Shown here piece after piece: positions 15,806 to 32,000 of a stretch of 32,000 bases of DNA. The position numbers and the translations under genes were made by a program. The stretch is from positions 32,968-64,967 of the forward strand of contig NC_009007.1 in NCBI RefSeq assembly GCF_000012905.2, given 5' to 3'. The notes under the pieces are model-generated. The model searched no databases. It had not been told where the DNA came from and saw only the letters and a program-made list of their open reading frames with translations. Position 1 is the stretch's first letter, and each line of letters starts with the position of its first letter. This DNA is from Cereibacter sphaeroides 2.4.1. Its GTDB lineage: Bacteria; Pseudomonadota; Alphaproteobacteria; Rhodobacterales; Rhodobacteraceae.

Positions 15806-15850
15806 TCCCCCCGGTAGAGCAAGACGCTCCCTGACACGGAAGGACAGAAC

Positions 15851-16231
15851 GTGAATGCTTCCACGATGGCCCGAACCGCCTACAGCGCGGCGCGCCAGGG
15901 TTCGGCCCGCACGCCGCGCTCGACCGAATATGCGCTTCTGGCCAAGGTCACAGCCCTCCTGAAGGAGACCGACCGCCACGACGCCCTGGCCTTTCCCGCC
16001 CTCGCCCAGGCGATCGAGCAGAACCGCAAGCTCTGGCTGCGCTTCGCCCTCGATGTGGCGCATCCCGACAACGAGCTTCCGCGCGATCTGCGGGCGCGGA
16101 TCTTCTATCTCTACGAGATCGTCCAGCAGCATTCCGCGCGGGTACTGGCACACCGGGCCGACACCGGCCTGCTCGTCGACATCAACAGGGCGGTGATGCG
16201 CGGGCTCGCCGGACAGGGAGGCGGATCATGA
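15851..16231 (+). CDS. flaF: Flagellar biosynthesis regulator FlaF (126 aa)
   Basis: It uses a GTG start with a GGAAGGA SD. The sequence contains YSAARQGSARTPRSTEYALLAKVTALL...NRKLWLRFALDVAHPDNELP...RARIFYLYEIV, which is the FlaF family pattern. flbT lies directly downstream. Confidence 0.85.
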   Translation: MNASTMARTAYSAARQGSARTPRSTEYALLAKVTALLKETDRHDALAFPALAQAIEQNRKLWLRFALDVAHPDNELPRDLRARIFYLYEIVQQHSARVLAHRADTGLLVDINRAVMRGLAGQGGGS

Positions 16232-16635
16232 GCGGCCTCGTCCTCCGGCTCGGGCCGGGCGAACGGGTGATGATCAACGGCGCGGTGATCGAGAACGGCG
16301 ACCGCCGCTCGCGGATCACGGTCATGACGCCCAATTCCGTCATCCTGCGCCAGCGCGACGCGATCCGCCCCGAAGAGGCCAACACGCCGGTCCGGCGGAT
16401 CTGCTACATGGCCCAGCTCGTCCTGTCGGGCGATGCGACCTTCGAGGACATGAAGCCGCAACTGCTGCGCGGGATCGAGCAGCTGAGCCAGGTCCTGACC
16501 GATCCCGACAGCCGCGCCCAGCTCGGCGTGGCGACCGAGGCGGTGCTGGCGGGTCATCACTACCAGATCCTGAAGGCGCTCCGCAGCCTGCTGCCGCGGG
16601 AGGCCCGGCTCTTCGCGGTGGCGGGCGACCGATGA
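16228..16635 (+). CDS. flbT: Flagellar biosynthesis repressor FlbT (135 aa)
   Basis: It starts MSGLVLRLGPGERVMINGAVIENGDRRSRITVMTPNSVILRQRD, which is FlbT-typical. It overlaps the flaF stop as ATGA. Confidence 0.85.
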   Translation: MSGLVLRLGPGERVMINGAVIENGDRRSRITVMTPNSVILRQRDAIRPEEANTPVRRICYMAQLVLSGDATFEDMKPQLLRGIEQLSQVLTDPDSRAQLGVATEAVLAGHHYQILKALRSLLPREARLFAVAGDR

Positions 16636-17420
16636 GCTTCCAGCCGGTCCTGCCTCTGACAGGCTATGCCGGCTGGCGGTTCCTCGGCCGCACGATGGAG
16701 CGTCAGCGCGACAGCCACGACCAGAGCCAGCAGGTCCAGCGGGAGGTCGCCTATTTCGCCGAAAAGATCGGCACGGTCCGCACCCCCGAGGATCTCGTCT
16801 CCGACTATCGGCTGCTCAAGGTGGCGCTCGGCGCCTTCGGGCTGGGGGAGGCCATCAACGGCAAGGCGCTGATCCGCAAGGTCCTGAACGAGGGGGCGGC
16901 CGACAAGGGGGCGCTCGCGAACCGGCTCTCGGACAAGCGCTGGCTGGCCCTCGCCAAGGCCTTCGACTTCGGCGGGGCCTCGGGGGCCGGGACGGGGACG
17001 GCGGGCTTCGCCGACCGGATCGCCGGGCAATATCGCACGCAGAGCTTCGAGGCGGCGATCGGCGAGGTCGACGCCAACCTGGGCCTCGCCCTCACCCTCG
17101 ATCACGAGATGGCGACGCTCGCCTCCGACGACATGAGCGAGGAGGCCAAATGGTTCAGCGTGCTGGGCTCCACCTCGCTCCGGGCGGTGTTCGACGGCGC
17201 CTTCGGCCTGCCCAGAGAATTCGCGGCTCTCGATCTCGACCGCCAGGTCGAGATCTACCAGGACAGGACGGCGCGGATGTTCGGCAGCGGATCGGCCTCG
17301 CAATTCGCCGCGGAGGACAAGCGCGAGACCCTGATCAAGACCTTCCTGATCCGCGCCGATCTGGGCTCCATGGGCCCGGCCCCTCCCGGCCGGATCGCCC
17401 TGACCCTGCTCGGCGGCTGA
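16632..17420 (+). CDS. DUF1217-family flagellar-locus protein (262 aa)
   Basis: It starts MSFQPVLPLTGYAGWRFLGRTMERQRDSHDQSQQVQREVAYFAEKIG and contains DYRLLKVALGAFGL, the pattern of the DUF1217 proteins found next to flaF/flbT in alphaproteobacteria. It overlaps the flbT stop as ATGA. Confidence 0.7.
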   Translation: MSFQPVLPLTGYAGWRFLGRTMERQRDSHDQSQQVQREVAYFAEKIGTVRTPEDLVSDYRLLKVALGAFGLGEAINGKALIRKVLNEGAADKGALANRLSDKRWLALAKAFDFGGASGAGTGTAGFADRIAGQYRTQSFEAAIGEVDANLGLALTLDHEMATLASDDMSEEAKWFSVLGSTSLRAVFDGAFGLPREFAALDLDRQVEIYQDRTARMFGSGSASQFAAEDKRETLIKTFLIRADLGSMGPAPPGRIALTLLGG

Positions 17421-17702: not shown

Positions 17703-18731
17703 TCACCCTCCCATGGCGCCGACAGTCTTGCCAGGATCCAGGGAGGCACGATCGCTGCCGGGGAAATGGCAGGCGGCGAACTGGCCAGGGGCTTCAACAG
17801 GCATCAGCGGTGGCGGTGTGGTCCTGCATACCGGTTGCGCCAGCGGGCAGCGGGTGTGGAAGCGGCAGCCGGGCGGCGGATTGGCCGGGCTGGGAAGATC
17901 GCCCTTGATCGCGGCAAAGCGCGTCTTGCCGCGATTGCGCGACGGCGATGCCCGCAGCAGCGCCGCCGTATAGGGATGCGAGGGCGCGTCAAAGATCTGA
18001 TGCTTGCTGCCCATCTCGACCACCTGCCCGAGATACATCACCATCACCCTGTCAGAGATATGCCGGATCACGCCGAGATCGTGGCTGATGAACAGATAGG
18101 TCAGCCCGAGGCTTTGCTTGAGATCCTGCAGCAGATTGAGGATCTGTGCCTGAATCGAGACATCCAGCGCCGAAGCCGCCTCGTCGCAGACGATGAAGCG
18201 CGGGTTCAGCGCCAGGGCGCGGGCGATGCAGATCCGCTGGCGTTGCCCGCCCGAGAACTCATGGGCGAAGCGCGCCGCATGGTAAGGAGCAAGCCCGACC
18301 AGATCTAGCAGCTCATCGAGCCGGGCCTGCCGGGAGGCCGGTGTGCCGACGCCATGGATGACCAGCGGCTCGACAATCAGCTCGCCCACCGTCATGCGCG
18401 GATTCAACGCTCCGAACGGGTCCTGAAAGATGATCTGCATGTTGCGGCGCATGGCGCGCATCCGGGCGGCGTCCAGCCCGCCCAGATCGGTACCGTCGAA
18501 CTCGACCTTCCCCGACGTGGCCTCGAGCAGCCGCAGCACCATGCGGCCGAGCGTGGTCTTGCCGCAGCCGCTTTCACCCACGACACCGAGCGTTTCCCCG
18601 GCCCGCACGTCGAACGAGACCCTGTCGACCGCCCGCACGACCCGGGGCGCCCCGCCGAGCCAGCCGCCTCCCGAGGAGAATTCCTTGCGCAGATCCTGCA
18701 CACGCAGCAGCGGGGGAAGAGGGTCTTGCAT
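17703..18731 (-). CDS. Oligopeptide/dipeptide-type ABC transporter ATP-binding protein, DppF/OppF-like (342 aa)
   Basis: It starts [18 protein letters not shown] and has Walker A GESGCGKTT, the signature FSGGQRQRI, and a C-terminal oligopeptide-ABC Cys motif (PPGCRFHTRCP). The ATG at 18731 overlaps the upstream stop by 1 nt. Confidence 0.88.
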   Translation of the reverse strand: MQDPLPPLLRVQDLRKEFSSGGGWLGGAPRVVRAVDRVSFDVRAGETLGVVGESGCGKTTLGRMVLRLLEATSGKVEFDGTDLGGLDAARMRAMRRNMQIIFQDPFGALNPRMTVGELIVEPLVIHGVGTPASRQARLDELLDLVGLAPYHAARFAHEFSGGQRQRICIARALALNPRFIVCDEAASALDVSIQAQILNLLQDLKQSLGLTYLFISHDLGVIRHISDRVMVMYLGQVVEMGSKHQIFDAPSHPYTAALLRASPSRNRGKTRFAAIKGDLPSPANPPPGCRFHTRCPLAQPVCRTTPPPLMPVEAPGQFAACHFPGSDRASLDPGKTVGAMGG

Positions 18732-19747
18732 CACGGGGCTCCTGCAGGAGTGATCTCGTCCAGCCGCAGGCAGGCGGCGCGATGGTCGGGACCGCATGCC
18801 AGCAGCGCTGGTTGGGCAAGGCGGCAGCCGGCGGCGGCATGGGCACAGCGCGGCTCGAAACGGCAGCCCGGCGGTGGATCGAAAGCCGGCGGCACCGTCC
18901 CGGGGATCGCATAGAGCCGGTCGGTGTCCACCTCGCTGGAGGGGATGGAGGCCAGCAGCCCGCGGGTATAGGGATGGCGCGGCGCATCGAAGACCGCACC
19001 GGCCGGCGCCTCTTCGATCACCCGGCCGGAATACATGATCATCACCCGGTCGGCGAAGGACGAGACGACCCCGAGGTCATGGGTGATCATCACCGTACCC
19101 ATCCGGTACTCTTCCTGCAGATCCTGCAACAACTCGAGGATCTGGGCTTGAATGGTGACATCGAGCGCGGTGGTCGGCTCGTCGGCGATCAGGACCCGCG
19201 GCTGGCAGGCCAGCGCCACGGCAATCATCGCGCGTTGCCGCATGCCGCCCGACATCTGATGCGGATAGTCATCGACACGCTGCGCCGCCGCCGGAATGCC
19301 GACCCGCCCCAGAGCGTCGATGGCACGGGCGCGCGCCACACGGCGACCGACCCCTTCGTGGCGGATCACTGTCTCGATGATCTGCTCGCCCACCGTCAGC
19401 ACCGGATTGAGCGCCGTCATCGGTTCCTGAAAGATCATGGCGATGGCGCTGCCGCGCAGCTGCTCGCAGCGCCGCTCGGTCGCCTGCAACAGATCCTCGC
19501 CCAGAAGGCGCAACCGGCTGGCGGTGATCGCGGCCTCCTTCGGCAGCAGGCGCATGATCGCCAGGGACGAGACGCTCTTGCCGCTGCCGGATTCCCCGAC
19601 CAGCCCGACGACCTCGCCCTCGTTCAGGGTCAACGAGACCTTGTTGATGATCGGCACGCCGCCGATGCTGACCGAGAGATCCGCCACTTCCAGCAGCGGG
19701 GCCGGTCCGGCAGCGGGGGAGGCAGGGGAAGGGGCATGTTGGGTCAT
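18731..19747 (-). CDS. Oligopeptide/dipeptide-type ABC transporter ATP-binding protein, DppD/OppD-like (338 aa)
   Basis: It contains [11 protein letters not shown], Walker [10 protein letters not shown], the signature MSGGMRQRA, and a C-terminal [13 protein letters not shown] motif. Confidence 0.88.
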
Positions 19748-19754
19748 GGGCTTG

Positions 19755-19774
19755 ATCGTATACGATTATACGAT
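19755..19774 (+). promoter_or_regulatory. Operator-like site S1 (GntR/FadR-type), between the enolase-family gene and the ATPase genes
   Basis: ATCGTATACGATTATACGAT contains the perfect 12-bp palindrome ATCGTATACGAT. It matches S2 and S3 at 17 of 20 positions shared by all three sites. Confidence 0.6.
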
Positions 19775-19796
19775 TCTTACAAGGAATTTTCTCGGT

Positions 19797-20972
19797 TCAA
19801 AGCTGCGGCGTGCGGTAGATCAGCTGTCCGCCGATGCGGATCTCGGTCTCGACCAGGTAGCGGCGCAGCGCGGACGCAGCCACCTGCAGCCCCAGCCCCG
19901 GTGCTTCCGGAGCCCGGATCAACCCCTCGGCATCGGGCCGGATGTGATCGCCGGTGATATCGAGCGCCAGTTGCTGCGGGGCGGCGGGATATTCGCAGAT
20001 GCGGTCGGCCTCGAGCCCGGCAAAGGGCTGCAACGAGGCGGAGAGCGCCAGATGCGAGGTGAAGGTATGGTTGACATAGGTGATGCCGCGCGCCTGCGCC
20101 GCATCGGCCACCCGCTTCGCCGGACCGAGCCCTCCGATGCGGCCGCAGTCGATCTGGATGAAGCCGATACGGCCGTAATCCATCAGATGCTGCGCCATAT
20201 GGAAGTTGTGCGCCGCCTCGCCGCCGGCGATGCGGACACGGGCACCGCGCCCGGCCAGAGCGGCATGGGCGGCCAGCGCGCCCGCATCGAACGGCTCTTC
20301 GAGCCAGAGCACCCCGGCGGCATCGAGCGTCGGCAGGCGCGCAGCGGCAGCCTCGACATCCTCTCCGAAGATCTGGCCGACATCGACCATCAGGTCCCCG
20401 TCCGGGCCCAGCCCTTCGCGCGCGGCCATGATCTGATCGGCGTCCGCCGCCACAGTGCCGCGCCCGATCGGACCCCAGCCGAATTTGACGGCTGCAAAGC
20501 CATCGCGCCGCGCGGCGCGGGCCCGCTCGAGTGTCTCCTGCGGCGTATCGCCGAACAGCAGCGAGGCGTAGGGCCTCTTGCCATGGCTGGCGCTGTAGCC
20601 CAGCAGGGCCCATGCCGGGGCCGAGAGCCTGCGGCCCAGCAGATCCCACAGCGCCATCTCGATCCCCGACAGCATATGCGGCGCCTGCAGCAGGTCCATC
20701 GAGTTATAGCCGACCAGCGCCGCAATGCGGGCGATATCGTCCGGCCCGTCCAGCCGCTGACCGAGCACGGAGTCCGAGACCGGACGGCAGACACCGTGCG
20801 ATTTCGGACAGACGAAGGCGGCGATCGAGGGCAGCGGCGCCGCTTCGCACTCGCCCCAGCCGATATGTCCGCCGGCCGCCACCCGGACCAGCAGCGCATC
20901 CTGACTGCCATCGGCGGCATCGGTCACCTCGGGCATCGACAGATAGAAAAGGTCGACGGCATCGATCTTCAT
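19797..20972 (-). CDS. Enolase-superfamily enzyme, mandelate racemase subgroup (probable acid-sugar/hydroxy-acid dehydratase or racemase; 391 aa)
   Basis: The barrel motifs are AAVKFGWGP, LMVDVGQ (metal Asp), WLEEPF (Glu), IAGGEA (Glu), IQIDCGRIGG (Asp of the dyad) and NHTF (His). It starts 1 nt after the stop of the upstream M81 gene. Confidence 0.8.
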   Translation of the reverse strand: MKIDAVDLFYLSMPEVTDAADGSQDALLVRVAAGGHIGWGECEAAPLPSIAAFVCPKSHGVCRPVSDSVLGQRLDGPDDIARIAALVGYNSMDLLQAPHMLSGIEMALWDLLGRRLSAPAWALLGYSASHGKRPYASLLFGDTPQETLERARAARRDGFAAVKFGWGPIGRGTVAADADQIMAAREGLGPDGDLMVDVGQIFGEDVEAAAARLPTLDAAGVLWLEEPFDAGALAAHAALAGRGARVRIAGGEAAHNFHMAQHLMDYGRIGFIQIDCGRIGGLGPAKRVADAAQARGITYVNHTFTSHLALSASLQPFAGLEADRICEYPAAPQQLALDITGDHIRPDAEGLIRAPEAPGLGLQVAASALRRYLVETEIRIGGQLIYRTPQL

Positions 20973-20973
20973 G

Positions 20974-22470
20974 TCAGCTCCGGTCTGCGCGCAGATGGGC
21001 CGTCGCGCGCGGGGTGAAATCGGTCAGGGGATCGAGCGGGAACATCGGCCGGGCGCAGATCCGGTGCCCGAGGCTGGCCAGATCCGCCGAGGTCGATCCC
21101 GGCGTGTCGATGTTGAAGTTGCGGGTGACCCAGGCGTCATACATGTGGTGTTCGGTATGGGGCGACTTGACCACGATCAGGTCGAAATCGGCCGGATCCA
21201 GCCCGTTGGCGTAGTAGATCGCCCGGTCGAAGAGCATGGCGGGCAGGCTCATCGCGACGACGGTGACGGTGCCGAATTCGAGCACGGCGCAGCGCCCGGC
21301 GTTCAGCGGTGTCTTCATGGTCTCGAGCCGGGTCAGGCCGTCCGACAGGAGCCGCACCCGCGCAGTGACCTCCAGCGGCGTGAAACGCGCAGGATCCATC
21401 CGCCCGCCGAGCGTGACCGGGATCTCGGCCCCCACCCCGGCCCTGTGGGCGGCCTCGGCGGCCTGCGGATCGACGATCTGCGCCAGCACCCGACCCGGAT
21501 AGTCCGCAGCCAGCAGCCCGCGCAGGATGGCATTCGAATCGCCGCTCGCCCCCGAGGAGGTCGCGTCGGCTGCATCGGTGAACACGACCGGGCCGGTCAG
21601 TGTCCGCGCTTCGGCAACGGCGTCGGAAAGACCGATCAGACGGCCCTGCATGCGATGGCGCAGGGCCCAGAATGCCGCGGCCAGCCGCTCGGCCTCGGCC
21701 CGGCCCCGCAGAGGGTCATCCGTGGTGAGGACGACCTGAGAGCAGAGTTCCGGCGCATCGGTGAAGGGATTGCCGATCATCAGGCCGGCCGCCAGCACCA
21801 TGCCATCGGCTTCGAGACGCCGGCATTCGCGGATCAGGTCGCCGTAGCAGCCGGTCGCGGTGATCAGTTCGTCGCCGCGCACCAGCGCCGGGATCACCGC
21901 CCGGACGATGCTGGCGGGGCGGCGGGCTGTCAGCCGGTCCAGCAGAAGCCGCGCCGCACGCGCGCCGGTATCGGCGAAATCGACATGCGGATAGGTGTGA
22001 TAGACGGCGATGCCATCCACCTGTGCAATCATCCGCTCGGTCAGGATGCCGTGCAGATCGAGCGAGATGATGATCGGCCGATCCGGTCCGGCAAGCGCGC
22101 GGATCTGCGCGAGCAGCCAGCCCTCCGGATCGGGCTCACCCACTGCCCCCATGGCCCCGTGCAAGCTGACATAGATGGCGTCCGCGCCGCCCACCCCCGC
22201 CCGCACCCGGTCGAGGATCTGCGCCGACAGCCGCGCCCAGCCCTCGGCCGACAGGATGCCGGCACTGTCGGCGCGGGCGGCAACGGTCGGGATCAGCGTG
22301 ACGCCGGGCGTGGCCTCGAGCACCGAGAGCGCGCCGCCGATGGCGGTGTTGCGGCCGCGATGCTGGAAGAGATCCTCCCCCTCCTCGATATGGAACAGCT
22401 CATAGTCGGACGGCACCGGATTGAAGGAGGAAATCTCCTGCATGCATTCGACGATCAGGATGGCGGGCAT
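20974..22470 (-). CDS. M81-family metallopeptidase (MlrC-like, microcystinase C family; 498 aa)
   Basis: It starts MPAILIVECMQEISSFNPVPS and contains ADAIYVSLHGAM, ISLDLHG and HTYPHVD, which are N-terminal MlrC family motifs. This is the 3' part of the 635-aa track ORF. A GGAG SD lies 17 nt after the upstream stop. Confidence 0.75.
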   Translation of the reverse strand: MPAILIVECMQEISSFNPVPSDYELFHIEEGEDLFQHRGRNTAIGGALSVLEATPGVTLIPTVAARADSAGILSAEGWARLSAQILDRVRAGVGGADAIYVSLHGAMGAVGEPDPEGWLLAQIRALAGPDRPIIISLDLHGILTERMIAQVDGIAVYHTYPHVDFADTGARAARLLLDRLTARRPASIVRAVIPALVRGDELITATGCYGDLIRECRRLEADGMVLAAGLMIGNPFTDAPELCSQVVLTTDDPLRGRAEAERLAAAFWALRHRMQGRLIGLSDAVAEARTLTGPVVFTDAADATSSGASGDSNAILRGLLAADYPGRVLAQIVDPQAAEAAHRAGVGAEIPVTLGGRMDPARFTPLEVTARVRLLSDGLTRLETMKTPLNAGRCAVLEFGTVTVVAMSLPAMLFDRAIYYANGLDPADFDLIVVKSPHTEHHMYDAWVTRNFNIDTPGSTSADLASLGHRICARPMFPLDPLTDFTPRATAHLRADRS

Positions 22471-22487
22471 GGCGGCGCTCCGGTGAT

Positions 22488-23528
22488 TCAGTGTTGGGGC
22501 CAGGTGTCGTTGTAGTCTTCCATCACCACCGCGACGGCATCGCCCCGGGTGACACGGCCGGGGCCGGCTCCGAACCAGACGATCCCGTCGCGCCGATAGA
22601 GAAGTTCGAGCGGGGCGGTATCGACATCCTCGACGAAGTGGATCCAGCCGGCGGTCTCGCCCGTCCGGACCTCTTCGCCCACATAATGCGTCGGCTCGAA
22701 GAGGCCTGTGCGCGGGGCCATGACATAGGCATCCGCCTCGCGCACCATCATGTGCCGGGTGCCGGCCGCGCCCCCGCGCTGCGCCGTCTCGGGCGTGCCC
22801 TCGATGACGCCCATGTGCTTCAGGACATTGAGGATACCGCGCTTGCCGATCCGCACGCCCTCGATGTTCACCCGGCCCCATCCGCCCAGTTCGGTGCCGA
22901 GCGAGACGATGCCGCGCCTTTCGACGCAGGAGGTGAAGGTCGAGCCCTCGTCCACACCGCCGAAAACGACATTGTGCGGCGCACCGAAGGCTTCGGCGGC
23001 AGCCAGTGTCCGGGCCCGCAGCGCCGGATCCGCAAGGTAGTGCATGTTGGTCGAGGGGGTCGAGTCGTAGGAATGCCCCGCCGTGTGCATGTCGACCGAG
23101 ATATCGGCCATCGGCAGGATCACCGAGTCCAGAAAATGCGCCAGCATCTGGCTGAACGTGCCCCGGGGATCGCCCGGGAAGCAGCGGTTGATGTCCCGGC
23201 CGTCGACGGGCGAAAGGCGGGTGTCCGACTGGATCGCCGGCATGTTCACCGCCGGCAACATGATGACGCGGCCCTGCACCTCTTCGGGACGCAGGCGGCG
23301 GGCAAGGTCGGAAATCGCGATCTGACCTTCATATTCATCGCCATGCACGCCGCCTGTCAGCAGCACCGTCGGACCGCTGCCGTTCTTCACCACGGTGATC
23401 GGGATCTCGACCGTGCCCCAGCCGGAATTGTTGCGAGACAGCGGCGCGCGGGCGTAGCCGGCCTGCCGCCCGTCCCTGTCGAAGTCGATGTCACAGGCAA
23501 TCCGGCTCTTCGCCTCAGAGTTGGCCAT
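22488..23528 (-). CDS. Succinylglutamate desuccinylase/aspartoacylase (AstE/AspA, M14-like) family deacylase (346 aa)
   Basis: It starts MANSEAKSRIACDIDFDRDGRQAGYARAP and contains TVLLTGGVHGDEYEG, a zinc-binding HxxE motif, plus DINRCFPG and VDMHT. A strong GGGAGGGA SD is present. This is the 3' end of the 1145-aa track ORF. Confidence 0.8.
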   Translation of the reverse strand: MANSEAKSRIACDIDFDRDGRQAGYARAPLSRNNSGWGTVEIPITVVKNGSGPTVLLTGGVHGDEYEGQIAISDLARRLRPEEVQGRVIMLPAVNMPAIQSDTRLSPVDGRDINRCFPGDPRGTFSQMLAHFLDSVILPMADISVDMHTAGHSYDSTPSTNMHYLADPALRARTLAAAEAFGAPHNVVFGGVDEGSTFTSCVERRGIVSLGTELGGWGRVNIEGVRIGKRGILNVLKHMGVIEGTPETAQRGGAAGTRHMMVREADAYVMAPRTGLFEPTHYVGEEVRTGETAGWIHFVEDVDTAPLELLYRRDGIVWFGAGPGRVTRGDAVAVVMEDYNDTWPQH

Positions 23529-23559
23529 CGGTCCCTCCCAAACTCTCTTGTTTCGCAAG

Positions 23560-23579
23560 ATTGTATACGATAATACGGT
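23560..23579 (+). promoter_or_regulatory. Operator-like site S2 in the divergent promoter region between the deacylase operon and the enolase2 operon
   Basis: ATTGTATACGATAATACGGT lies 32 nt from the minus-strand ATG at 23528 and 55 nt from the plus-strand ATG at 23634. Confidence 0.6.
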
Positions 23580-23633
23580 TGTCAAGGCAGCCGCCGCCCT
23601 CGATCCAGATTTCCGCGCAAGAGGTTTTTGCAG

Positions 23634-24815
23634 ATGACATCCACCGCCTTCGCCCCGCGCAGCCTTGCGCCGGCCCGCATCACTGCCGTGCGCGTCGCCC
23701 CCCTGCTGGGCGAGAGTCCGCAGGGCGGGTGGAGCCATGAGATCAAGGCGGACGACAGCGTGCATGCGCTGATCGCACTGCACACGGATGCCGGCATCTC
23801 GGGCTATGGCAGCGTCTTCACCAATGGCGCGCTGGTACAGGCGGCGGCGGATGTTCTGACACCGCTGCTGCTGGGCGAGAATGCGCTGGAACCCGACCGC
23901 ATCGCCGAGAAACTGCACCAGAACACCTTCTGGATGGGGCGCGGTGGCTCGATCACCCACACGATCAGCGGCATCGATATCGCCATGTGGGACATCCTTG
24001 GCCAGGCCACCGGCCTGTCGGTGGGGCGGCTCCTGGGCGGGCGGCACCGCGACCGGGTGCAGCCCTATTGCTCGCTGCTGATGGACATGCCCGAGCGGAT
24101 GGAAGCGGTGATCGCCCCGCACCGCGCGGCGGGGTTCCGCGCCTTCAAGATCGGCTGGGGGCCGTTCGGCCGGCGCGGCGATGCCGGACTCGACCGCGCC
24201 ATCATCGACGCGGCCCGCACCGCGGTCGGTACGGATGCCCAGCTTCTTGTCGATGCCGGGGCCTCGGATGCCTATTGGCCGAACGGTCTGAAATGGGCGA
24301 TGAACACCGCCGCCATGCTGGCCGACTACGATGTCGGCTGGTTCGAGGAAGCGCTGCCGCCCGATGCGATCGAGGATTTCATCGCCTTGCGTCGTATGAG
24401 CCCGGTGCCGATCGCCGGCGGCGAGGTGCTGACGCGGCGCCAGAGCTTCGCCCCCTGGCTGGTGCGCGGCGCCTTCGACATCGTGCAGCCCGATGTGACG
24501 AAGGTCGGCGGCATCAGCGAGCAGCGCCGCATCGCTTGGATGGCGCGCGATTTCGGCATCCGCTACGTGGGCCACGGCTGGAACACCGCCTTCGGTCTGG
24601 CGGCCGATCTGCAGCTGGCCGCCGCCATGCCCGACTGCACGCTGGTCGAATATATCGGCGGCTCGGCCTATGTCGACCGGCTGACCACACGCCCCTTCGC
24701 CCTCGATGCCGAGGGCATGCTGGCGATCCCCGATCTGCCCGGCCTCGGCGTCAGCCCCGATCCGGCACTGCTGGCGCGCTATACGCCCGACCCGGAGAAA
24801 TTCTTCAGCGCCTGA
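23634..24815 (+). CDS. Second enolase-superfamily enzyme, mandelate racemase subgroup (393 aa)
   Basis: Motifs are RAFKIGWGPFG, LLVDAGA, WFEEAL, IAGGEV, VQPDVTKVGG and GHGWN. It is clearly a paralogue-type relative of the gene at 19797-20972, but divergent from it. The ATG at 23634 has a GAGG SD; the track start at 23628 is a TTG. Confidence 0.8.
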   Translation: MTSTAFAPRSLAPARITAVRVAPLLGESPQGGWSHEIKADDSVHALIALHTDAGISGYGSVFTNGALVQAAADVLTPLLLGENALEPDRIAEKLHQNTFWMGRGGSITHTISGIDIAMWDILGQATGLSVGRLLGGRHRDRVQPYCSLLMDMPERMEAVIAPHRAAGFRAFKIGWGPFGRRGDAGLDRAIIDAARTAVGTDAQLLVDAGASDAYWPNGLKWAMNTAAMLADYDVGWFEEALPPDAIEDFIALRRMSPVPIAGGEVLTRRQSFAPWLVRGAFDIVQPDVTKVGGISEQRRIAWMARDFGIRYVGHGWNTAFGLAADLQLAAAMPDCTLVEYIGGSAYVDRLTTRPFALDAEGMLAIPDLPGLGVSPDPALLARYTPDPEKFFSA

Positions 24816-24836
24816 ACAGGCAAAGGGAGGACGACG

Positions 24837-25583
24837 ATGAACCAGATCGATCTGGCCGGCCGCGTGGCCGTGGTGACGGGCGGCGCGCAGGGGATCGGGC
24901 GCGCCGTGGCCGAGCGGCTGATCGCCTCGGGGGCGCGGGTCTGCCTGTGGGACCGCGACGCCGGGCGGGCCGCGGCGACGGCGGCCGAACTGGGCGGGAA
25001 CAGCTTCTTTCAGGTGGTGGATCAGGTGGATTTCACGGCGGTAAAGGCCGCCGCCGACGCCACCGAAGCCACGGGCGGCCGGATCGACATCCTGATCGCC
25101 AACGCGGGCATCGCCGGCAGCAATGCGCCGGTCGCCGACTACCCGGTCGAGGAATGGCACCGCATCATCGATATCAACCTGAACGGTGTCTTCCATTGCT
25201 GCAAGGCGGTGGTGCCCGGCATGAAGGCCCACGGATACGGGCGCATCGTCACGGTCGCCTCGATCGCCGGCAAGGAAGGCAATCCCAATGCGGCCGCCTA
25301 TTCGGCCTCGAAGGCCGGGGTCATCGCTTTGACCAAATCGCTGGGCAAGGAGGTCGCCGGCCAGGATATCGCCGTCAATTGCGTGACCCCGGCCGCCGCC
25401 CGCACGCAGATCTTCGACCAGATGGCGCAGAGCCACATCGACTACATGCTGTCGCGCATCCCGCGCGGCCGCTTTCTGGATCTGGACGAGGCCGCGGCGA
25501 TGATCGCGTGGCTGGCCAGTGCCGAGAACAGCTTTACCACCGGTGCCGTCTTCGATCTCTCCGGCGGCCGGGCCACCTATTGA
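24837..25583 (+). CDS. Short-chain dehydrogenase/reductase (SDR), FabG-like (248 aa)
   Basis: It has TGGAQGIGRA (the Rossmann TGxxxGIG motif), NAGI, and a YSASKAG catalytic Tyr-xxx-Lys. An AAGGGAGGA SD is present. Confidence 0.88.
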   Translation: MNQIDLAGRVAVVTGGAQGIGRAVAERLIASGARVCLWDRDAGRAAATAAELGGNSFFQVVDQVDFTAVKAAADATEATGGRIDILIANAGIAGSNAPVADYPVEEWHRIIDINLNGVFHCCKAVVPGMKAHGYGRIVTVASIAGKEGNPNAAAYSASKAGVIALTKSLGKEVAGQDIAVNCVTPAAARTQIFDQMAQSHIDYMLSRIPRGRFLDLDEAAAMIAWLASAENSFTTGAVFDLSGGRATY

Positions 25584-25592
25584 GAGAGTGAC

Positions 25593-26125
25593 ATGAAACC
25601 TGTCGGAGACGGGCCCGCAGGGCAGGAGACGCCCGGAAGGCTCGATGCCGATGGCGCGCTGCGCGCGCTCTCTGGACTGGGTCGATGACATCGCCGGAGC
25701 GGCGCCGCGGCCCGCGGGGCGGGCGCGGCTCCGCGCCCTCGGCCCTGCGGCCTTGCCCGCGGTTGCGGGCACTCCTCGCACAGGCCCCCGTGCCGGGCGC
25801 GGGGGGCAGGTCATCTGCATCGGGGTGAACCGAACCGACCACGCCGCCGAAGCCGGTCCGGCGGTTCCGGCCGGGCCGGCGATCTTCATGAAGGCGACGG
25901 GCACCATCTGCGGCCCGGAGGACACGATGCCGATCCTGCGACGCGCGCAAGACCGGCCGGGAAGTCGGGCCGGACGGCGTCATCGGCCATGGCGGCACGC
26001 GCCAATGCCACGGCGCCTGTCGCCGGCTATTGCGTCACGCGCGATGTCTCGGAACGGGCTGACGGCGGAACGGCCCCGGAGACATGCTCTCGGGGCCGTT
26101 TGTCTTGCAGAAGGGCGGCCGTCGG
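25593..26125 (+). pseudogene. Decayed, 3'-truncated fumarylacetoacetate hydrolase (FAH)-family gene (2-keto-4-pentenoate hydratase / 2,4-diketo-3-deoxy-acid hydrolase type)
   Basis: The ATG at 25593 keeps a GAGAGAG SD, and the frame reads MKPVGDGPAGQETPGRLDADGALRALSG before stopping at 25686-25688. Family-like segments continue in other frames. These are WVDDIAGA...LRALGPAALPAVAG...GQVICIGVNRTDHAAEAG...PAIFMKATGTICGPEDTMPI (frame of the track ORF at 25645), then KTGREVGPDGVIGHGG in a third frame. After that comes VAGYCVTRDVSER (frame of the track ORF at 25989), then SGPFVL (frame of the track ORF at 26084). That requires at least four frame changes. Roughly the C-terminal third of a normal FAH protein is missing, because the convergent SDR gene ends at 26126. 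Confidence 0.7.
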
Positions 26126-26836
26126 TCAGATCGTCCAGCCGCCATCGATCGCGATGGCCTGCCCTGTCGTATAGCCCGAACAGGCCAGCCAGAGCGCGAG
26201 ATCGGCGATCTCTTCCGGCGTGCCCAGCCGACCCATCGGCTGGCGGGCAACGAAGGCCGCACGGGCGGCCTCCGCATCGCCTGTGGCGCCGAGCCTCTCG
26301 CGCAGGCTGGGGCTCTCGACGGTTCCGGGGCAGATCGCATTGCAGCGGATGCCTCTCGAAACGAAATCCGCTGCAACCGATTTGGTCAATCCGATCACCG
26401 CCGCCTTGCTGGTGCCATAGACGCAGCGGTCGGGCGCCCCCTTGAGGCTGCTGACCACCGAGGCGATGTTGACGATACTGCCCGAGCCCGCCGCCAGCAT
26501 TCCGGGCAGCACCGCCCGAATGGTGCGGATCGTGCCCCTGAGGTTGATGTCCAGCGCCAGATCCAGCTCGGCCTCGGTCTGATCGAGTATCGTGCCGCCA
26601 TGCACGACGCCGGCGCAGTTCACGAGCACATCGACCGGGCCGAGCCCCGCGACCAGGGCCTCCACCGCCGCCCCGTCGCGCACATCGAGCGCATGGCACT
26701 CGGCCGCCAGCCCATCCAGAAGCCGCGCATCGCGGTCGCTGGCCAATACCCGCGCGCCGGCGGCCAGGAAACGCTCGGCGCAGGCGCGGCCGATGCCCTG
26801 CCCGGCCGCCGTGATGAGGACGGTCTTTTCCTGCAT
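26126..26836 (-). CDS. SDR-family oxidoreductase, DHRS6 / 2-keto-3-deoxy-acid dehydrogenase-like (236 aa; 241 aa if started at 26851)
   Basis: It starts MQEKTVLITAAGQGIGRA and contains NCAGVV, a YGTSKAAV catalytic motif, and a C-terminal TTGQAIAIDGGWTI. The ATG at 26836 has a GGGAG SD. The alternative ATG at 26851 overlaps the permease stop as ATGA. Confidence 0.85.
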   Translation of the reverse strand: MQEKTVLITAAGQGIGRACAERFLAAGARVLASDRDARLLDGLAAECHALDVRDGAAVEALVAGLGPVDVLVNCAGVVHGGTILDQTEAELDLALDINLRGTIRTIRAVLPGMLAAGSGSIVNIASVVSSLKGAPDRCVYGTSKAAVIGLTKSVAADFVSRGIRCNAICPGTVESPSLRERLGATGDAEAARAAFVARQPMGRLGTPEEIADLALWLACSGYTTGQAIAIDGGWTI

Positions 26837-26847
26837 GTCTCCCGTCC

Positions 26848-27753
26848 TCATGAGCGGCGGGCACGCATCCGCGGGTCCAGCACATCGCGCAACCCGTCGC
26901 CCATCAGGTTCAGTCCCAGCACCGCCAGGGCGATCACCAGACCGGGGAAGAAGGCGATCCAGCCGGCTTCCTGCAGATAGGTGCGGCCGTCGGAGATGAT
27001 ATTGCCCAGCGAGGGGGCGGGCGGCGGGGGTCCTACTCCGAGGAAGCTGAGGATCGCCTCGGCCAGGATCGACACCGCAAAGACAAAGGTCAGCTGCACG
27101 ATCAGCGGAGAGAGCGCGTTGGCGAGGATATAGCGCAGCACGATGCGCATATGCCCGGCTCCGACGGCCACGGCCGCCTCGACATAGGGCAATTCGCGGA
27201 TCACAAGCACGCTGGCCCGCATGATGCGGGCGGTGCGCGGCGTGAAGGTGATGGTCAGCGCAATCACCGCATTCATCAGCGAGGGACCGAGGGCGGCCGC
27301 CAGCGCGATGGCCAGCAGCACCCCGGGAAAGGCCATCAGCCCGTCCATCACCCGCATCAGCCCGTTGTCGAGCCAGCGGACATAGCCGGCCAGCAGCCCC
27401 AGCACGATCCCCATTATTCCGGTGGCCAGCACCACCGCCAGTCCGATCCCCAGCGAGATCCGCGTGCCATGGATCACCCGGCTCAGGATATCGCGGCCGA
27501 AGACGTCGGTGCCGAACCAGTGCTGCGCCGAGGGCGGCATCAGCAGGGCACGGTAATTGTTCTTGTTCGGATCGTAGGGCGCGATCAGATCGGCCAGCAG
27601 CGCCATCAGCACGATCAGGGCAAAGAAGGCGAAGCCGATCTGGAACGAGCGGTGGCGGAACAGCCGGCGCAGCAGCGCCCCGGCGGCGGTCAGCCGGGCC
27701 GAGCGAGGGGCGGCCGGGCCGCCGGCGGTCGGATCGAGAGAACTATCGGTCAT
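26848..27753 (-). CDS. ABC transporter permease, DppC/OppC-like (301 aa)
   Basis: It starts MTDSSLDPTAG and contains HWFGTDVFGRDILSRVIHG. It also has the EAA-loop region PYVEAAVAVGAGHMRIVLRYILANAL. Its start overlaps the upstream permease gene by 11 nt. Confidence 0.88.
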   Translation of the reverse strand: MTDSSLDPTAGGPAAPRSARLTAAGALLRRLFRHRSFQIGFAFFALIVLMALLADLIAPYDPNKNNYRALLMPPSAQHWFGTDVFGRDILSRVIHGTRISLGIGLAVVLATGIMGIVLGLLAGYVRWLDNGLMRVMDGLMAFPGVLLAIALAAALGPSLMNAVIALTITFTPRTARIMRASVLVIRELPYVEAAVAVGAGHMRIVLRYILANALSPLIVQLTFVFAVSILAEAILSFLGVGPPPPAPSLGNIISDGRTYLQEAGWIAFFPGLVIALAVLGLNLMGDGLRDVLDPRMRARRS

Positions 27754-28696
27754 TGCGCACCCGCGGGTCGAACCAGCCATAGGCCAGATCCACCAGAATA
27801 TTGACGAAGACGAAGAGCGAAGCGGTGATGAGCAGCCCGCCCTGAATGATCGGGAAATCGCGGCGCTGGATTGCGCCGATGATCAGACGGCCCACCCCCG
27901 GGAGAGAGAAGACGGACTCGATCACCACCGCGCCACCGAGCAGCACCCCGGTCATCACGCCGATCACGGTGATGACCGGCACCAGCGCATTGCGCAGCGC
28001 ATGTTTGAAGACCACCGTATGGCGCCGCATGCCCTTGGCACGGGCGGTGCGGATATAGTCCTGCCCCATCACCTCGAGCATCGAGGAGCGCGTCATCCGG
28101 GCGATCACCCCCATCTGGGTGAAGGCCAGCGCCAGGGACGGCAGCGCCATCGAGCGCGCCCAGCCGAGCGCATCCTCGGAGAAAGGCACATAGCCGCCGG
28201 TCGGGAACCAGGCGAGCCCCACCGAAAAGACCGAAATCATGATCAGCCCGAGCCAGAAATCCGGCACCGAAAGGCCGATCAGCGCCACCGACATCGTGCC
28301 CTGATCGACCCAGCTGTCATGCCGGATCGCCGCCAGCACACCCAGCAGCACGCCGAGGACCACCGCCAGCACCAGCGCCAGCCCGGCCAGCGACAGCGTG
28401 ACGGGCAGCCGTTCCAGCACCGCATCGGTGACCGACATGTTCAGCAGATAGGAATGCCCCAGATCGCCCTGCAGCAGGTTGCCGTACCAGCGCAGCGCCT
28501 GCTGATACAGCGGCTGGTTCAATCCCAGCTGGTCGCGGATCACGGCGCGCTGCTCGGCGGTGGCCTCGGCCCCTGCAAGCTCGGCCGTCACATCGCCCGG
28601 CACGATGGCGATGATGGCAAAGGTCACCAGCGATACCACGAAAAGCACCGGAACCGCGCTGACCATCCGTCGGATCAGAAACCTCAGCACTGTCAT
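27743..28696 (-). CDS. ABC transporter permease, DppB/OppB-like (317 aa)
   Basis: It starts MTVLRFLIRRMVSAVPVLFVVSLVTFAI and contains DYIRTARAKGMRRHTVVFKHALRNAL. An AGGAGA SD is present. Confidence 0.9.
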   Translation of the reverse strand: MTVLRFLIRRMVSAVPVLFVVSLVTFAIIAIVPGDVTAELAGAEATAEQRAVIRDQLGLNQPLYQQALRWYGNLLQGDLGHSYLLNMSVTDAVLERLPVTLSLAGLALVLAVVLGVLLGVLAAIRHDSWVDQGTMSVALIGLSVPDFWLGLIMISVFSVGLAWFPTGGYVPFSEDALGWARSMALPSLALAFTQMGVIARMTRSSMLEVMGQDYIRTARAKGMRRHTVVFKHALRNALVPVITVIGVMTGVLLGGAVVIESVFSLPGVGRLIIGAIQRRDFPIIQGGLLITASLFVFVNILVDLAYGWFDPRVRNDR

Positions 28697-28741
28697 TCTC
28701 CTGTCCTGACGGGCGGTGGGTCGCCCGCGCCATTGGCTGTG

Positions 28742-28768
28742 CCCGGGCGCGCATCGGCCGCGCCCGGG
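28742..28768 (-). terminator. Strong intercistronic hairpin between the SBP and permease genes (attenuator / mRNA-stabiliser candidate)
   Basis: The minus strand reads CCCGGGCGCG-gccgatg-CGCGCCCGGG, a perfect 10-bp stem. It sits in the 80-nt gap between the SBP stop at 28777 and the permease ATG at 28696. Confidence 0.5.
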
Positions 28769-28776
28769 CCGGTCAC

Positions 28777-30333
28777 TCAGTCGGCGAACCAGACGTTGTA
28801 GACGCGCGGGAAGCGGAAGGGACGGAAGCCTTCGACCTTGGCGCTCGATGCCTGCATCAGCCCGGTCTCCCCCAGTTTTATGACCGGGGCAAAGGTGTCC
28901 AGGCGCTGCTGGATGCGGGCGAAGACCGCCTTGCGCGCAGTCAGATCGGCCGTGTCGACCAGTTCGGCATAGAGCGCATCCAGTTCCGGGTCGGCCTTTC
29001 GGAAATGGGTGGCCGGTCCGGCGAAGGTGGAGATCAGCGCCTCCGGCCCCAGATAGGGCTCGATCCCCATGGTCAGCGTCCAGGCCGACCAGCCGGTGTC
29101 CTGCAGACGGATCTGCAACGCCGTCGGCCAGTCGACCTGATTGATGACCACATTCACGCCGATGGCGCGCAGCTGCTCGGCGATCACGACCGCCGCCTTG
29201 TTGCGCTCGGGGCCCTGGGTATCGGTCAGGATGGTGAAGGGCTGGCCGGAATAGCCCGCCTCGGCCAGCAGCGCCCGGGCGCGGTCGAGATCGGCGACGT
29301 TGTAGCGGTCCTTGCCGATCTCGCCCGCGTCATAGGTCGTCCCCTCATACATCCAGCCATGGTAGAGGTTGAACAGCCCTTCGGTGGCGATCGCCATGAT
29401 CTCCTCGGAGTTCAGCGCGATCTGCACCGCCTCGCGGAATTTCGGATTGTCGGCCGGCGCTTCGTTGAGGTTGAAAATGAAGACGAGGAAGGCCCAGGGG
29501 CTGTTCTCATAGACCTTCATCTCGCTGTTGCCGGCCAGACGCCTCGCGGTCGGCACCGGGATCTGCTCCAGCAGCTGGACCTCGCCGGCCTCGAGCGCCG
29601 CCACCGCTGCCCCCGGCTCCGGGATGACGCGGAAGGTGACGCTGTCGAGATAGGCGGTCTTCTTGCCGCCGAAGCCGTCGATATCGGCATGGGTCTCATC
29701 CGCGGCGTAATCGGCGAACCGCTCCAGCCGGACGTGGCTGTCGGGGACATATTCGACGAATTTGTAGGGGCCGGTGCCGATCACCGCGATCTCGTTCGCG
29801 GGCTTTCCGGCCTCTTCGGCGGGAATGATGACGGCCGGGGCGCGGGGAGAGGCAAAGGCTTCGAGGAAACCGGGAAAGGGCTTCTCCATGGTCAGCGTGA
29901 CCTCGAGCGGCCCGCTGGCCTCGATGCTCGTCACTCCCGCCAGCATCGAGGCGGTCCCGCCGATCGCCTTGTAGCGCTCCAGCGAGGCACGGACATCCTC
30001 GGCCCCCATCTCCTTGCCGTTGTGGAACTTGACCCCGGCGCGCAGCGGAAACCTGTAGGTGAGCCCGTCCTCCGAGATCTCGACCCCGGTGGCAAGGATC
30101 GGGATCGGCACGATGGAGTCCGAGAAGCCGTACAGGGTCTCGTAGATGTTCATCGTGATGTTGCGCGACATCTGCGAGGTGGTGACCATCGCATCCAGGC
30201 TGGGCGGATTGGAGGCCTGGGCCACGATCAGATCGCCGCCCATGCTCTGGGCATCCGCGGTGCTGGCGCTCAAACCGATGAACAGCGCCGCACCCGTGGC
30301 CATAAGCATGCGCCAGAGGCTGATTTTTGGCAT
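28777..30333 (-). CDS. ABC transporter substrate-binding protein, family 5 (peptide/nickel/opine type; 518 aa)
   Basis: It starts MPKISLWRMLMATGAALFIGLSASTADAQSMGGDLIVAQ, a signal peptide. Family-5 features are present throughout, for example NPPSLD and FHNGKEMGAEDV. A GAGAGGAA SD lies before the ATG at 30333. The track start at 30405 adds 24 unlikely residues. Confidence 0.88.
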   Translation of the reverse strand: MPKISLWRMLMATGAALFIGLSASTADAQSMGGDLIVAQASNPPSLDAMVTTSQMSRNITMNIYETLYGFSDSIVPIPILATGVEISEDGLTYRFPLRAGVKFHNGKEMGAEDVRASLERYKAIGGTASMLAGVTSIEASGPLEVTLTMEKPFPGFLEAFASPRAPAVIIPAEEAGKPANEIAVIGTGPYKFVEYVPDSHVRLERFADYAADETHADIDGFGGKKTAYLDSVTFRVIPEPGAAVAALEAGEVQLLEQIPVPTARRLAGNSEMKVYENSPWAFLVFIFNLNEAPADNPKFREAVQIALNSEEIMAIATEGLFNLYHGWMYEGTTYDAGEIGKDRYNVADLDRARALLAEAGYSGQPFTILTDTQGPERNKAAVVIAEQLRAIGVNVVINQVDWPTALQIRLQDTGWSAWTLTMGIEPYLGPEALISTFAGPATHFRKADPELDALYAELVDTADLTARKAVFARIQQRLDTFAPVIKLGETGLMQASSAKVEGFRPFRFPRVYNVWFAD

Positions 30334-30419
30334 TCCGCGTTCCTCTCTGTTATGGGCGGACTTGTCGGTGCTGAACTGCCGGCATCTGTCCAGGATGGAC
30401 GGCATGGTAAAACTCAGCT

Positions 30420-30439
30420 ATCGTATGATCGTATACAAT
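30420..30439 (-). promoter_or_regulatory. Operator-like site S3 in the divergent SBP / gntR promoter region (autoregulation candidate)
   Basis: The minus strand reads ATTGTATACGATCATACGAT. It ends 7 nt before the gntR ATG at 30446 and lies 87 nt upstream of the SBP ATG. Confidence 0.6.
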
Positions 30440-30445
30440 GCTATC

Positions 30446-31204
30446 ATGCAGTCAAGAAGTTCGAGTCAAGAGATGCACGCGAAAGACACACAACCCGGAA
30501 CTGATGCCCTTCCCCGGCTTGCGCCGCTGGAGGCCCGCACCCTGGTGGACCAAGTGGTGGATGCGATTGTCGAGGCCACCGCCACCGGTGCGTTCCTGCC
30601 CGGCGACCGGATCGTCGAGGCCGAGGTGGCCCGCGCGCTGAATGTCAGCCGCGTCCCGGTGCGCGAGGCGCTTCGGATCCTCGAGAGCCAGGGCATCGTG
30701 GTGAACGAGCGCTATCGCGGCATGCGGCTCATGGATGTCTCAGCCGACCGGCTGGAGAAGATCCTCAAGGTGCGTAACGCATTGGAAACGCTTGCGGCCC
30801 ACGAGGTCCTTGATCTCAAGCCGGAGCATCCCGACATTCTGAGCCCGCTTGAGGCCCGGGTGCGGGAATTGCATGCCGCAGTGGCGGCTGGCGATTCCTT
30901 TGGAGTCGCGCGGCTGGACACGGAATTCCACCGCACCCTGTGCAAGATCTCGGGCAATGGTGTGCTGCTGCAAAGCTGGGAGCCGTTGTCGCGGCAGCTG
31001 ACCATCATCTTCGGCCTCTCGACGCTGCAGAAGCCCATCGAATCCATCGCGCGGGAACATGACGACGTGCTGGATGCGCTGCGCGCAGGCGACCGGGCCG
31101 CGGTGACCGAGATGATTCGGGTCCATATCCTCGATTATAGCCGCGAGTTGGATTACGAAGGACTTGTCCGTGCCCACAGGTTCGGCCGCAGGGCAAAGGA
31201 ATGA
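30446..31204 (+). CDS. GntR-family regulator with an FCD domain; probable island regulator (252 aa; alternative ATG at 30473)
   Basis: It contains ...TLVDQVVDAIVEATATGAFLPGDRIVEAEVARALNVSRVPVREALRILESQGIVV, a GntR winged helix-turn-helix. The FCD part includes DTEFHRTLCKISGN and REHDDVLDALRAGD. This is the 3' part of the 352-aa track ORF. Confidence 0.85.
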   Translation: MQSRSSSQEMHAKDTQPGTDALPRLAPLEARTLVDQVVDAIVEATATGAFLPGDRIVEAEVARALNVSRVPVREALRILESQGIVVNERYRGMRLMDVSADRLEKILKVRNALETLAAHEVLDLKPEHPDILSPLEARVRELHAAVAAGDSFGVARLDTEFHRTLCKISGNGVLLQSWEPLSRQLTIIFGLSTLQKPIESIAREHDDVLDALRAGDRAAVTEMIRVHILDYSRELDYEGLVRAHRFGRRAKE

Positions 31205-32000
31205 TCACGGCGTTGTTGGGTGACGCGTGGCCTCTCTGGTTCAACCCCGGCATCTGATGGACCGGGTCCAGGATGAACCGATCGGGCTTCTGATGAATTG
31301 CCGGGCGGCCGATTTCCGTCATTTGACCGGATGGTCAGGAACGCCTGCGCGATAATCCGGAATTCCTGCCCATGGAAACCCAGCTGGTGCAGTCCTCCAT
31401 GTCAACGATCCTTGACTTGTCCGATGCATATGCGGTGCAGCTCAGGCCTGAGGCACGATGGCCCCTTTCCCCTTCAGCATGAGGCCCCGCGGACGAAATT
31501 GCTGGCGCCAACGCGGGAGACGCATCTGCTCGAAACCCTCGGGCCATGCGGCGAAGCTGGTCTGCCCCTATCATCAATGGACCTACAGAGACGGACGGGC
31601 GGCTGCTCTGGGCCCGCGACATGGGCCCGGAATTCGAGCCCGCCCGCCACGGGCTGAAGCCCGTCGCCTGCGAGATCGCCGCGGGCATGGTCTTCCTCTG
31701 CCTCGCCGCGGATCCGACCGATTTCTCGGAGGTGAAGGCCGCCGCCGACCGCTATGCCGCGCCGCACCGGCTTGACGAGCTGAAGGTCGCGCACCGCTCC
31801 TCGATCCTCGAGAAGGCGAACTGGAAGCTGGTGATGGAGAACAACCGCGAGTGCTATCACTGCGCCGGGTCGCATCCCGCGCTCTGCCGCACCTTCAACG
31901 ACGATCCCGACCTCGTGGGATCGGACGACAGCCTGTACTCGCCCGAGGGCGCCGACCATGTGGCACGCTGAGAGGCGGCGGGGTTGCCCTCGAGCTATCT
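31201..32000 (+). pseudogene. Decayed Rieske [2Fe-2S] non-haem-iron oxygenase alpha-subunit gene (GbcA/stachydrine-demethylase-like); continues beyond the window
   Basis: An ATG at 31201 overlaps the gntR stop as ATGA, but that frame stops after 18 codons. Recognisable segments lie in different frames. SGHAAKLVCPYHQWTY is in the frame of the track ORF at 31458. ETDGRLLWARDMGPEF...NWKLVMENNRECYHCAGSHPALC is in the frame of the track ORF at 31546, so there is a frameshift near 31587-31590. The first Rieske box reads N-C-W-R-Q-R-G and has no C-x-H. An in-frame TGA at 31969-31971 is followed by a still-plausible EAAGLPSSY. The 5' boundary is uncertain. Confidence 0.6.

Follow-up and report, generated by a model that had tools for sequence, protein, structure and literature searches.

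A composite 20-bp motif as the probable operator of a GntR/FCD regulator in a catabolic gene cluster of Cereibacter sphaeroides

In a 32,000-nucleotide stretch of DNA from Cereibacter sphaeroides 2.4.1 (the whole stretch that was analysed, referred to as the window in the following), a 20-bp motif occurs in three copies, S1 to S3, within a 13.5-kb cluster of 12 genes that Pfam scans of plausible reading frames identify as an uptake-and-breakdown type. The motif is real, and comparison with other genomes makes it probable, at roughly 80% in our estimate, that it serves as operator for the GntR/FCD regulator encoded in the cluster, RSP_3893, which would bind and repress as explained below. Each copy combines a palindrome typical of FadR-like operators with an additional half-site, and dozens of alphaproteobacterial genera have kept this composite architecture at the corresponding gene junctions.

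The motif and its three sites

The element begins with a 12-bp palindrome, ATYGTATACNAT, whose halves ATCGTA (H1) and TACGAT (H2) meet at a GTATAC centre; after two further bases it continues with a second TACGAT (H3). H3 thus lies 8 bp further on, with 11 nt between its centre (the midpoint of positions 15-20) and that of the palindrome. S1 (19755-19774, plus strand, ATCGTATACGATTATACGAT), of which the first 12 bp (ATCGTATACGAT) are a perfect palindrome, is located in the 49-bp gap between the stop codon of the enolase-superfamily gene MR1 and the start (ATG 19747) of a gene for a DppD-like ATPase. S2 (23560-23579, plus strand, ATTGTATACGATAATACGGT) occupies the 105-bp divergent gap between a DoeB/AstE-like deacylase operon on the minus strand and an operon of a second enolase-superfamily gene, MR2, and an SDR gene on the plus strand. 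S3 (30420-30439, minus strand, ATTGTATACGATCATACGAT) lies in the divergent gap between an operon headed by a solute-binding protein (SBP) gene on the minus strand and the GntR/FCD gene on the plus strand, and is oriented such that its third half-site is directed at the SBP gene. The coordinates and strands of all three 20-mers had been given in an original prediction from the bare sequence and were borne out by direct reading, as was their intergenic placement, with every site in a gap ahead of genes. Together, S1 to S3 account for all promoter-bearing gaps of the cluster, of which there are only three, and their distances to start codons range from 7 to 90 nt.

Within the window, which has a G+C content of about 70%, the consensus with up to three mismatches retrieves S1 to S3 only, and it has no match at this threshold in 100 dinucleotide-preserving shuffles of the window. 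Likewise, the 12-bp core ATNGTATACNAT is found just at S1 to S3 when up to two mismatches are allowed, while the 8-mer TATACGAT with up to one mismatch has 13 matches against 2.96 expected, nine of which fall within the three sites. A search of the window against Rfam returned no match anywhere, so that a known RNA element is not the explanation, and a literature search with the motif string returned unrelated primer sequences only.

Over 59 non-redundant sites, variation is confined to three positions. Two of them, 3 and 10, mirror each other in the 12-bp palindrome and have an information content of 1.06 and 0.6 bits, and the third, position 13, belongs to the spacer before H3; positions 14-20 reach 1.6-1.96 bits each. 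These bit values are partly biased by the way the sites were discovered, but the same pattern is seen at the sites upstream of the ATPase gene and between the AstE and MR2 genes that were located by a matrix scan. The GTATAC core fits the FadR-subfamily operator consensus NyGTM-N0-1-KACNy (Rigali 2002 as cited in PMC4494728), as had been proposed, and the question of whether the element should be read as a palindrome or as a direct repeat is answered with both: it is a palindrome plus one direct-repeat half-site. We also considered the 20-mer as one palindrome with 8-bp arms and a 4-bp spacer, but did not adopt this as the primary reading, since in distant relatives the 12-bp palindrome alone is retained and since the variable positions 3 and 10 are symmetric in the 12-bp reading.

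Occurrence in other genomes

Regulator orthologues with 60-77% identity number more than 100 and are found in Hyphomicrobiales, Rhodobacterales and relatives, and in dozens of alphaproteobacterial genera the motif occupies the corresponding three gene junctions, rearranged clusters included. Loci from Nitratireductor pacificus, Martelella and Microbaculum, which were selected by protein similarity only, retain the gene set and carry the motif in the gaps between gntR and the SBP gene and between the AstE and MR2 genes; in Microbaculum, where the transporter has been relocated, the motif is found ahead of the moved SBP gene.

A scan for the exact pattern ATYGTATACGATNATACGRT in one genome per species (185,579 species) yielded 69 stretches, 39 of them within 8-kb blocks bearing cluster genes according to tblastn. 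Ten of the other 30 directly adjoin other GntR/FCD genes (hmmsearch) in Chloroflexota, Actinomycetota and Gamma-, Beta- and Deltaproteobacteria, where they stand beside genes of pyridoxal-phosphate (PLP)-dependent enzymes or transporters; the remaining matches are upstream of assorted metabolic genes or in coding DNA of AT-rich taxa. For uniform base composition, about 17 matches are expected by chance, and far fewer in genomes with 65-70% G+C; chance matches would mostly fall in AT-rich genomes.

A matrix scan of the cluster loci located 67 sites in three recurrent classes, at which the orientation of the composite motif is informative. In the gap between gntR and the SBP gene, the palindrome end (H1) points toward gntR and the third half-site toward the SBP gene in all of the 27 loci in which the two genes could be recognized. 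At the sites just ahead of the DppD-like ATPase gene, H1 points toward the gene (15/15 loci). Either orientation is seen in the AstE/MR2 gap of Nitratireductor, Martelella and Microbaculum, and also in an AstE/gntR gap of the Bosea/Chelatococcus/Tagaea type, whose regulator is about 45% identical. H3 is kept at the ATPase sites even though no gene lies on the H3 side, so that use as the -10 box of a divergent promoter does not explain its conservation; on this ground we rejected the idea that H3 is conserved only as a -10 box.

As a motif-blind check, we chose 80 metagenome loci by protein similarity and searched for the 12-bp core upstream of the regulator gene. Where the regulator is at least 62% identical, the core is present in seven of seven loci (L001, L002 and L004 among them), with 5-6 of 6 matches to TACGAT at an 8-bp offset on the side away from gntR, while the gntR-side flank scores 2-3 of 6, the background being about 1.4 of 6. 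At 44-52% identity, the core is found in 11 of 13 loci, nine of which have an extra half-site with at least 4 of 6 matches, some of them on both flanks (L088, L089). Below 42% identity, about 40% of the loci have the core, and the extra half-site is at background level, with the exception of locus L146. In this locus (2337-2356), which encodes a 32%-identical regulator, the site is a perfect 28-bp palindrome of four half-sites, TTCGTATA-ATTGTATACGAT-TATACGAA. Half-sites on both flanks also occur in L088 and L089 (near 7878) and in the Bosea-type loci L009, L018, L071 and L074. This distribution points to the palindrome as the ancestral and widely shared part of the operator, and to H3, sometimes accompanied by its mirror image H0, as a group-typical add-on.

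The original prediction had further described a compact regulon. At the level of exact matches this holds, given that the draft genome of Cereibacter johrii has only two, both in the cluster; worldwide it does not, as the 20-mer also adjoins the genes of other FCD regulators in other phyla.

The same 20-mer, third half-site included, is seen beside unrelated GntR/FCD genes in three loci from Limnocylindria (L016, L026, L048), one from Acidimicrobiia (L037), one from Gammaproteobacteria (L062), and in L054, L064, L053, L023 and L072. Several of these loci pair it with a gene for a PLP-dependent (PALP) enzyme, and the regulators of all ten loci have the recognition helix VSKIPVREAL. All regulators beside the 20-mer have a helix of the form VS[KR][IV]PVREAL, VSRVPVREAL in that of the window, which suggests a broad clade of FCD regulators with one common operator architecture.

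The regulator

The gene next to S3 (30473-31204, plus strand, alternative ATG at 30446) encodes the sole transcription factor in the cluster, and its anticipated identity as a GntR/FCD protein agrees with Pfam matches to GntR (E-value 1.3e-13) and FCD (E-value 9.6e-23; both for 30446-31204). The strings given for RSP_3886, RSP_3887 and RSP_3893 in the supplement of PMC4344238 match the window exactly, and C. johrii JA192 is 96.7% identical to the window at the DNA level; the regulator is therefore RSP_3893 or a near-identical equivalent. Its start is probably ATG 30473, not 30446, because most orthologues have about 245 residues and C. johrii has ATT at the position of 30446. Depending on the start codon chosen, the distance from S3 to the regulator gene is 6-33 nt; with the likely start, S3 lies about 33 nt upstream and does not abut the start as had been thought. 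Public gene calls include an over-extended version of the regulator with 352 residues (P0001, 95% identical; 30146-31204, plus strand), which spans S3 as well as the beginning of the SBP gene; this version is almost certainly an erroneous call.

The closest relative in the PDB is 7xp0 (E-value 2.3e-14). FCD domains have a known metal-assisted carboxylate-binding site. In the FCD domain of the regulator, four residues, D149, H153, H196 and H218, do not vary among 26 orthologues, which makes them candidate counterparts of the metal ligands in solved FCD structures. As this invariant D-x3-H, H, H pattern is compatible with the FCD metal and carboxylate site, the effector is probably an acidic intermediate of the pathway.

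Proposed mode of action and its alternatives

From the sites, their positions, their conservation and their co-occurrence with the regulator, we infer the following mode of binding and repression, its stoichiometry and its effector. One regulator dimer would bind the 12-bp palindrome ATYGTA/TACNAT, as FadR-type proteins do on GT..AC palindromes. H3 most likely recruits a second dimer via one of its two winged helix-turn-helix (wHTH) DNA-binding domains, which would render binding cooperative and tighter. Operator occupancy is then expected to block RNA polymerase at five transcription units, namely gntR itself; the SBP gene with two permease genes and SDR2; MR2 with SDR1; the deacylase gene with an M81 peptidase gene and MR1; and the two ATPase genes. 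This block is expected because -10-like hexamers are part of the operators, whose distance to start codons is 7-90 nt, and promoter occlusion, negative autoregulation included, is the most likely mode of repression. A carboxylate metabolite of the pathway, possibly bound at the FCD metal site, would release the regulator and thereby induce uptake and catabolism. One candidate promoter is a sigma-70-like one for the SBP operon (30428-30455, minus strand; TTGACT, 16 nt, TACGAT), found as a consensus match, whose -10 hexamer is the second half-site of S3.

Several points weigh against this interpretation. The link between regulator and operator comes from comparative genomics, and the figures of the exact scan are inflated since its loci were selected for the motif, whereas the protein-selected sets are unbiased. 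A consensus promoter scan found convincing promoter hexamers at one site only; at S1 and S2, -35-like boxes placed by hand have spacings of 14-16 nt or leave several possible -10 boxes. Paralogues that recognize a common GTATAC core could cross-bind, and as our scan of the source genome covered the 32-kb window, extra and weaker sites may exist elsewhere in it. Finally, the sole published assignment of the S2 and S3 cores, in the supplement of PMC4344238, names another GntR protein, RSP_3339.

This last point corresponds to a different explanation, in which S1 to S3 are bound by the paralogous RSP_3339 and the cluster belongs to a wider nitrogen-related regulon with nif and polyamine-transport genes. 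It goes back to the R. sphaeroides regulatory network model of Imam, Noguera and Donohue (2015; PMC4344238), whose cluster 45 motif places RSP_3886, RSP_3887 and RSP_3892 together with RSP_3337-3339 and RSP_0535-0541 under the regulator RSP_3339; the sites of RSP_3338 and RSP_3339 have a ATTGTATACA core in common. The physical sites are the same as ours: the 15-mers that the model gives for RSP_3886 and RSP_3887 correspond to the two strands of S2, and RSP_3892 is among the cluster members. Yet, unlike the element described here, the published motif is truncated to 15 nt, does not list S1, is merged with nif and polyamine genes, and is given to RSP_3339. That assignment is based on sequence scoring, and the three candidate regulators of cluster 45 do not include RSP_3893. 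Furthermore, the sites listed for RSP_3338 and RSP_3339, AGATATGTATACAAT and AGGATTGTATACATA, are one to two positions off the ATNGTATACNAT core, and the nif site, AAGAATGTAAAAAAT, is weak, while the full 20-mer adjoins the RSP_3893 orthologue across dozens of genera and moves with it in rearranged clusters. This co-localization across genera favours RSP_3893 over RSP_3339, and we consider regulation by the latter improbable.

We regard it as no more probable that RSP_3893 binds these sites as an activator or in a dual role and not as a simple repressor. Some FadR-family proteins, FadR included, activate some promoters, and the non-canonical spacing of the -35-like boxes on either side of S1 and S2 makes the positions of these sites relative to the promoters tentative. 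On the other hand, catabolic FCD regulators with autoregulatory divergent sites are mostly repressors. The sites in the window also overlap -10-like hexamers and are close to start codons. For the repressor majority among such regulators, PMC4494728 may be cited as well.

That the element is mainly promoter sequence, a reiterated -10-like TACGAT/TATAAT, or left over from a repeat or mobile element is highly improbable: TACGAT and, on the opposite strand, TATAAT or TATGAT do look like -10 boxes, but a promoter has no need of a perfect 12-bp palindrome and would not be expected to keep 17-20 of 20 positions across phyla next to GntR/FCD genes, the third half-site persists even in places where it could not serve any gene as a -10 box, and around S1 to S3 the gene calls include no transposase or integrase and Rfam has no match.

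Comparison with known operators

The proposed operator of RSP_3893 shares its GT-A/T-AC palindrome core with FadR-type operators such as those of the HypR2 and HpxS groups, which have sites of the ATCGTATACGAT and TTGTATACAA type (PMC4494728); the HypR2 group, according to the supplement of that paper, further combines a VS[KR][IV]PVREAL-type helix with ATCGTATACGAT-like sites. The general layout, an autoregulatory site by the regulator gene with divergent catabolic and transport operons, is likewise that of FadR-type systems. Unlike in the HypR2 and HpxS groups, however, the targets are a Dpp-type transporter, a DoeB-like deacylase, an M81 peptidase and enolase-family enzymes, and the third half-site is conserved to the same degree as the core. 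Neither an RSP_3893-type regulator nor the 20-mer is listed in the part of the supplement covered here.

Suvorova, Korostelev and Gelfand (2015; PMC4494728, section 17) reported additional half-sites at one or both flanks of many GntR palindromes, 7-12 nt away from the centre. H3 resembles these boxes in lying at 11 nt, usually on one side and in some relatives on both. By contrast, the published boxes are weaker, with about half the score of a true half-site (PMC4494728), whereas H3 is not weaker but near-invariant and fixed in its orientation relative to the regulated genes. A precedent for the use of a lone third half-site is found in Escherichia coli NanR, an FCD-family repressor with a (GGTATA)3 operator, in which hexamer repeats follow one another with a period of 8-9 bp and three dimers bind cooperatively, each with one wHTH on a consensus repeat (PMC8012715). 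The NanR operator consists of three direct repeats without a palindrome; here, the half-sites are inverted, direct and direct (ATCGTA, TACGAT, TA, TACGAT).

Given that H3 is nearly invariant, that its orientation toward particular genes is fixed, and that some relatives have a symmetric 28-bp version, one may speculate that the regulator forms an asymmetric higher-order complex, in which one dimer occupies the palindrome and another is held by a single DNA-binding domain, and that this mode is common to the FCD clade with the VS[KR][IV]PVREAL helix in Proteobacteria, Chloroflexota and Actinomycetota. We put this forward tentatively, as a possibility that is less likely than its absence; if true, it would be a general binding mode midway between FadR (palindrome) and NanR (direct repeats), and go beyond local variation.

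Genes of the cluster and its surroundings

The operon that would be controlled by S3 is headed by the gene for a family-5 (Dpp/Opp-type) periplasmic SBP (28777-30333, minus strand; Pfam SBP_bac_5) with a signal-peptide-like N-terminus, upstream of which GAGAGGAA is readable. Downstream of it on the same strand follow the genes for two ABC permeases (27743-28696 and 26848-27780; Pfam) and SDR2 (26126-26851; tblastn and NCBIfam), and the overlaps of stop and start codons between permease and SDR2 genes make a single transcript likely. The ATPases of this transporter are encoded apart, at a distance of 7 kb from the genes for SBP and permeases, yet with their own motif copy, S1: the DppD-like ATPase at 18731-19747 and the DppF-like ATPase at 17703-18797 (both minus strand; Pfam ABC_tran and oligo_HPY). 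The DppD-like gene has its sole in-frame ATG 7 nt from S1 with no Shine-Dalgarno sequence visible (19747-19774, minus strand), and the conserved part of the protein begins about 17 codons later in most other genera. Either its mRNA is leaderless or has a very short leader, or transcription reaches the gene from the operon upstream of it.

On the other side of S1, three genes on the minus strand encode the deacylase of the AstE/AspA family (22488-23528), the M81/MlrC-like metallopeptidase (20974 to about 22473) and MR1 (19797-20972), all identified with Pfam. On the plus strand, S2 is followed by MR2 (23634-24815; Pfam MR_MLE_N/C), which resembles acid-sugar dehydratases, and SDR1 (24837-25583; Pfam adh_short). 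None of the cluster enzymes reaches an equivalog cut-off in NCBIfam: the deacylase scores 291 bits against DoeB, under the cut-off of 402.7 bits, and the enolase-superfamily proteins resemble acid-sugar dehydratases only at scores under the threshold, MR2 those for galactonate and arabinonate.

Between SDR1 and SDR2, tblastn identifies a decayed remnant of a gene of the fumarylacetoacetate (FAA)-hydrolase family (25681-26168, plus strand), of which only fragments are left, matching residues 30-114 and 147-203 of an intact Nitratireductor gene; at this place, C. johrii and the window show a difference of about 260 bp. The last step of an acid-sugar-type branch thus seems to be decaying in this genome.

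Downstream of the regulator, the alpha-subunit gene of a Rieske-type ring-hydroxylating oxygenase (31546-31971, plus strand) runs past the end of the window; as there is no motif copy in front of it, it is probably not part of the regulon. On its other side, the cluster adjoins flagellar genes of the alphaproteobacterial type, namely flagellin, flaF, flbT and a DUF1217 gene (14922-17420, plus strand). Further away, genes for an ABC ATPase with a TOBE domain, an SBP_bac_11 protein and a regulator with a ModE-like HTH and a TOBE domain form a molybdate-type group (6555-11899), close to a gene of the quinolinate phosphoribosyltransferase family, an Rrf2 regulator gene and an ExoD gene. The string TAGACGAT occurs twice, at 8474 and 8552.

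Significance

On the comparative evidence, the system appears to be a well-supported yet ordinary case of a GntR/FCD repressor with a local catabolic regulon. Its novelty is lowered by the computational detection of the core in 2015 (PMC4344238) and by the earlier description of extra half-sites (PMC4494728), and our knowledge of how GntR regulators work is unchanged by these results. What they provide is a concrete, if predicted, regulator-operator assignment for an uncharacterised but widespread alphaproteobacterial cluster, which would correct the assignment to another GntR protein in the published network model. The operator with its three half-sites also lends itself unusually well to the question of what additional half-sites do at GntR palindromes, and the regulator could be used as a handle on, or a biosensor toward, the substrate of the cluster.

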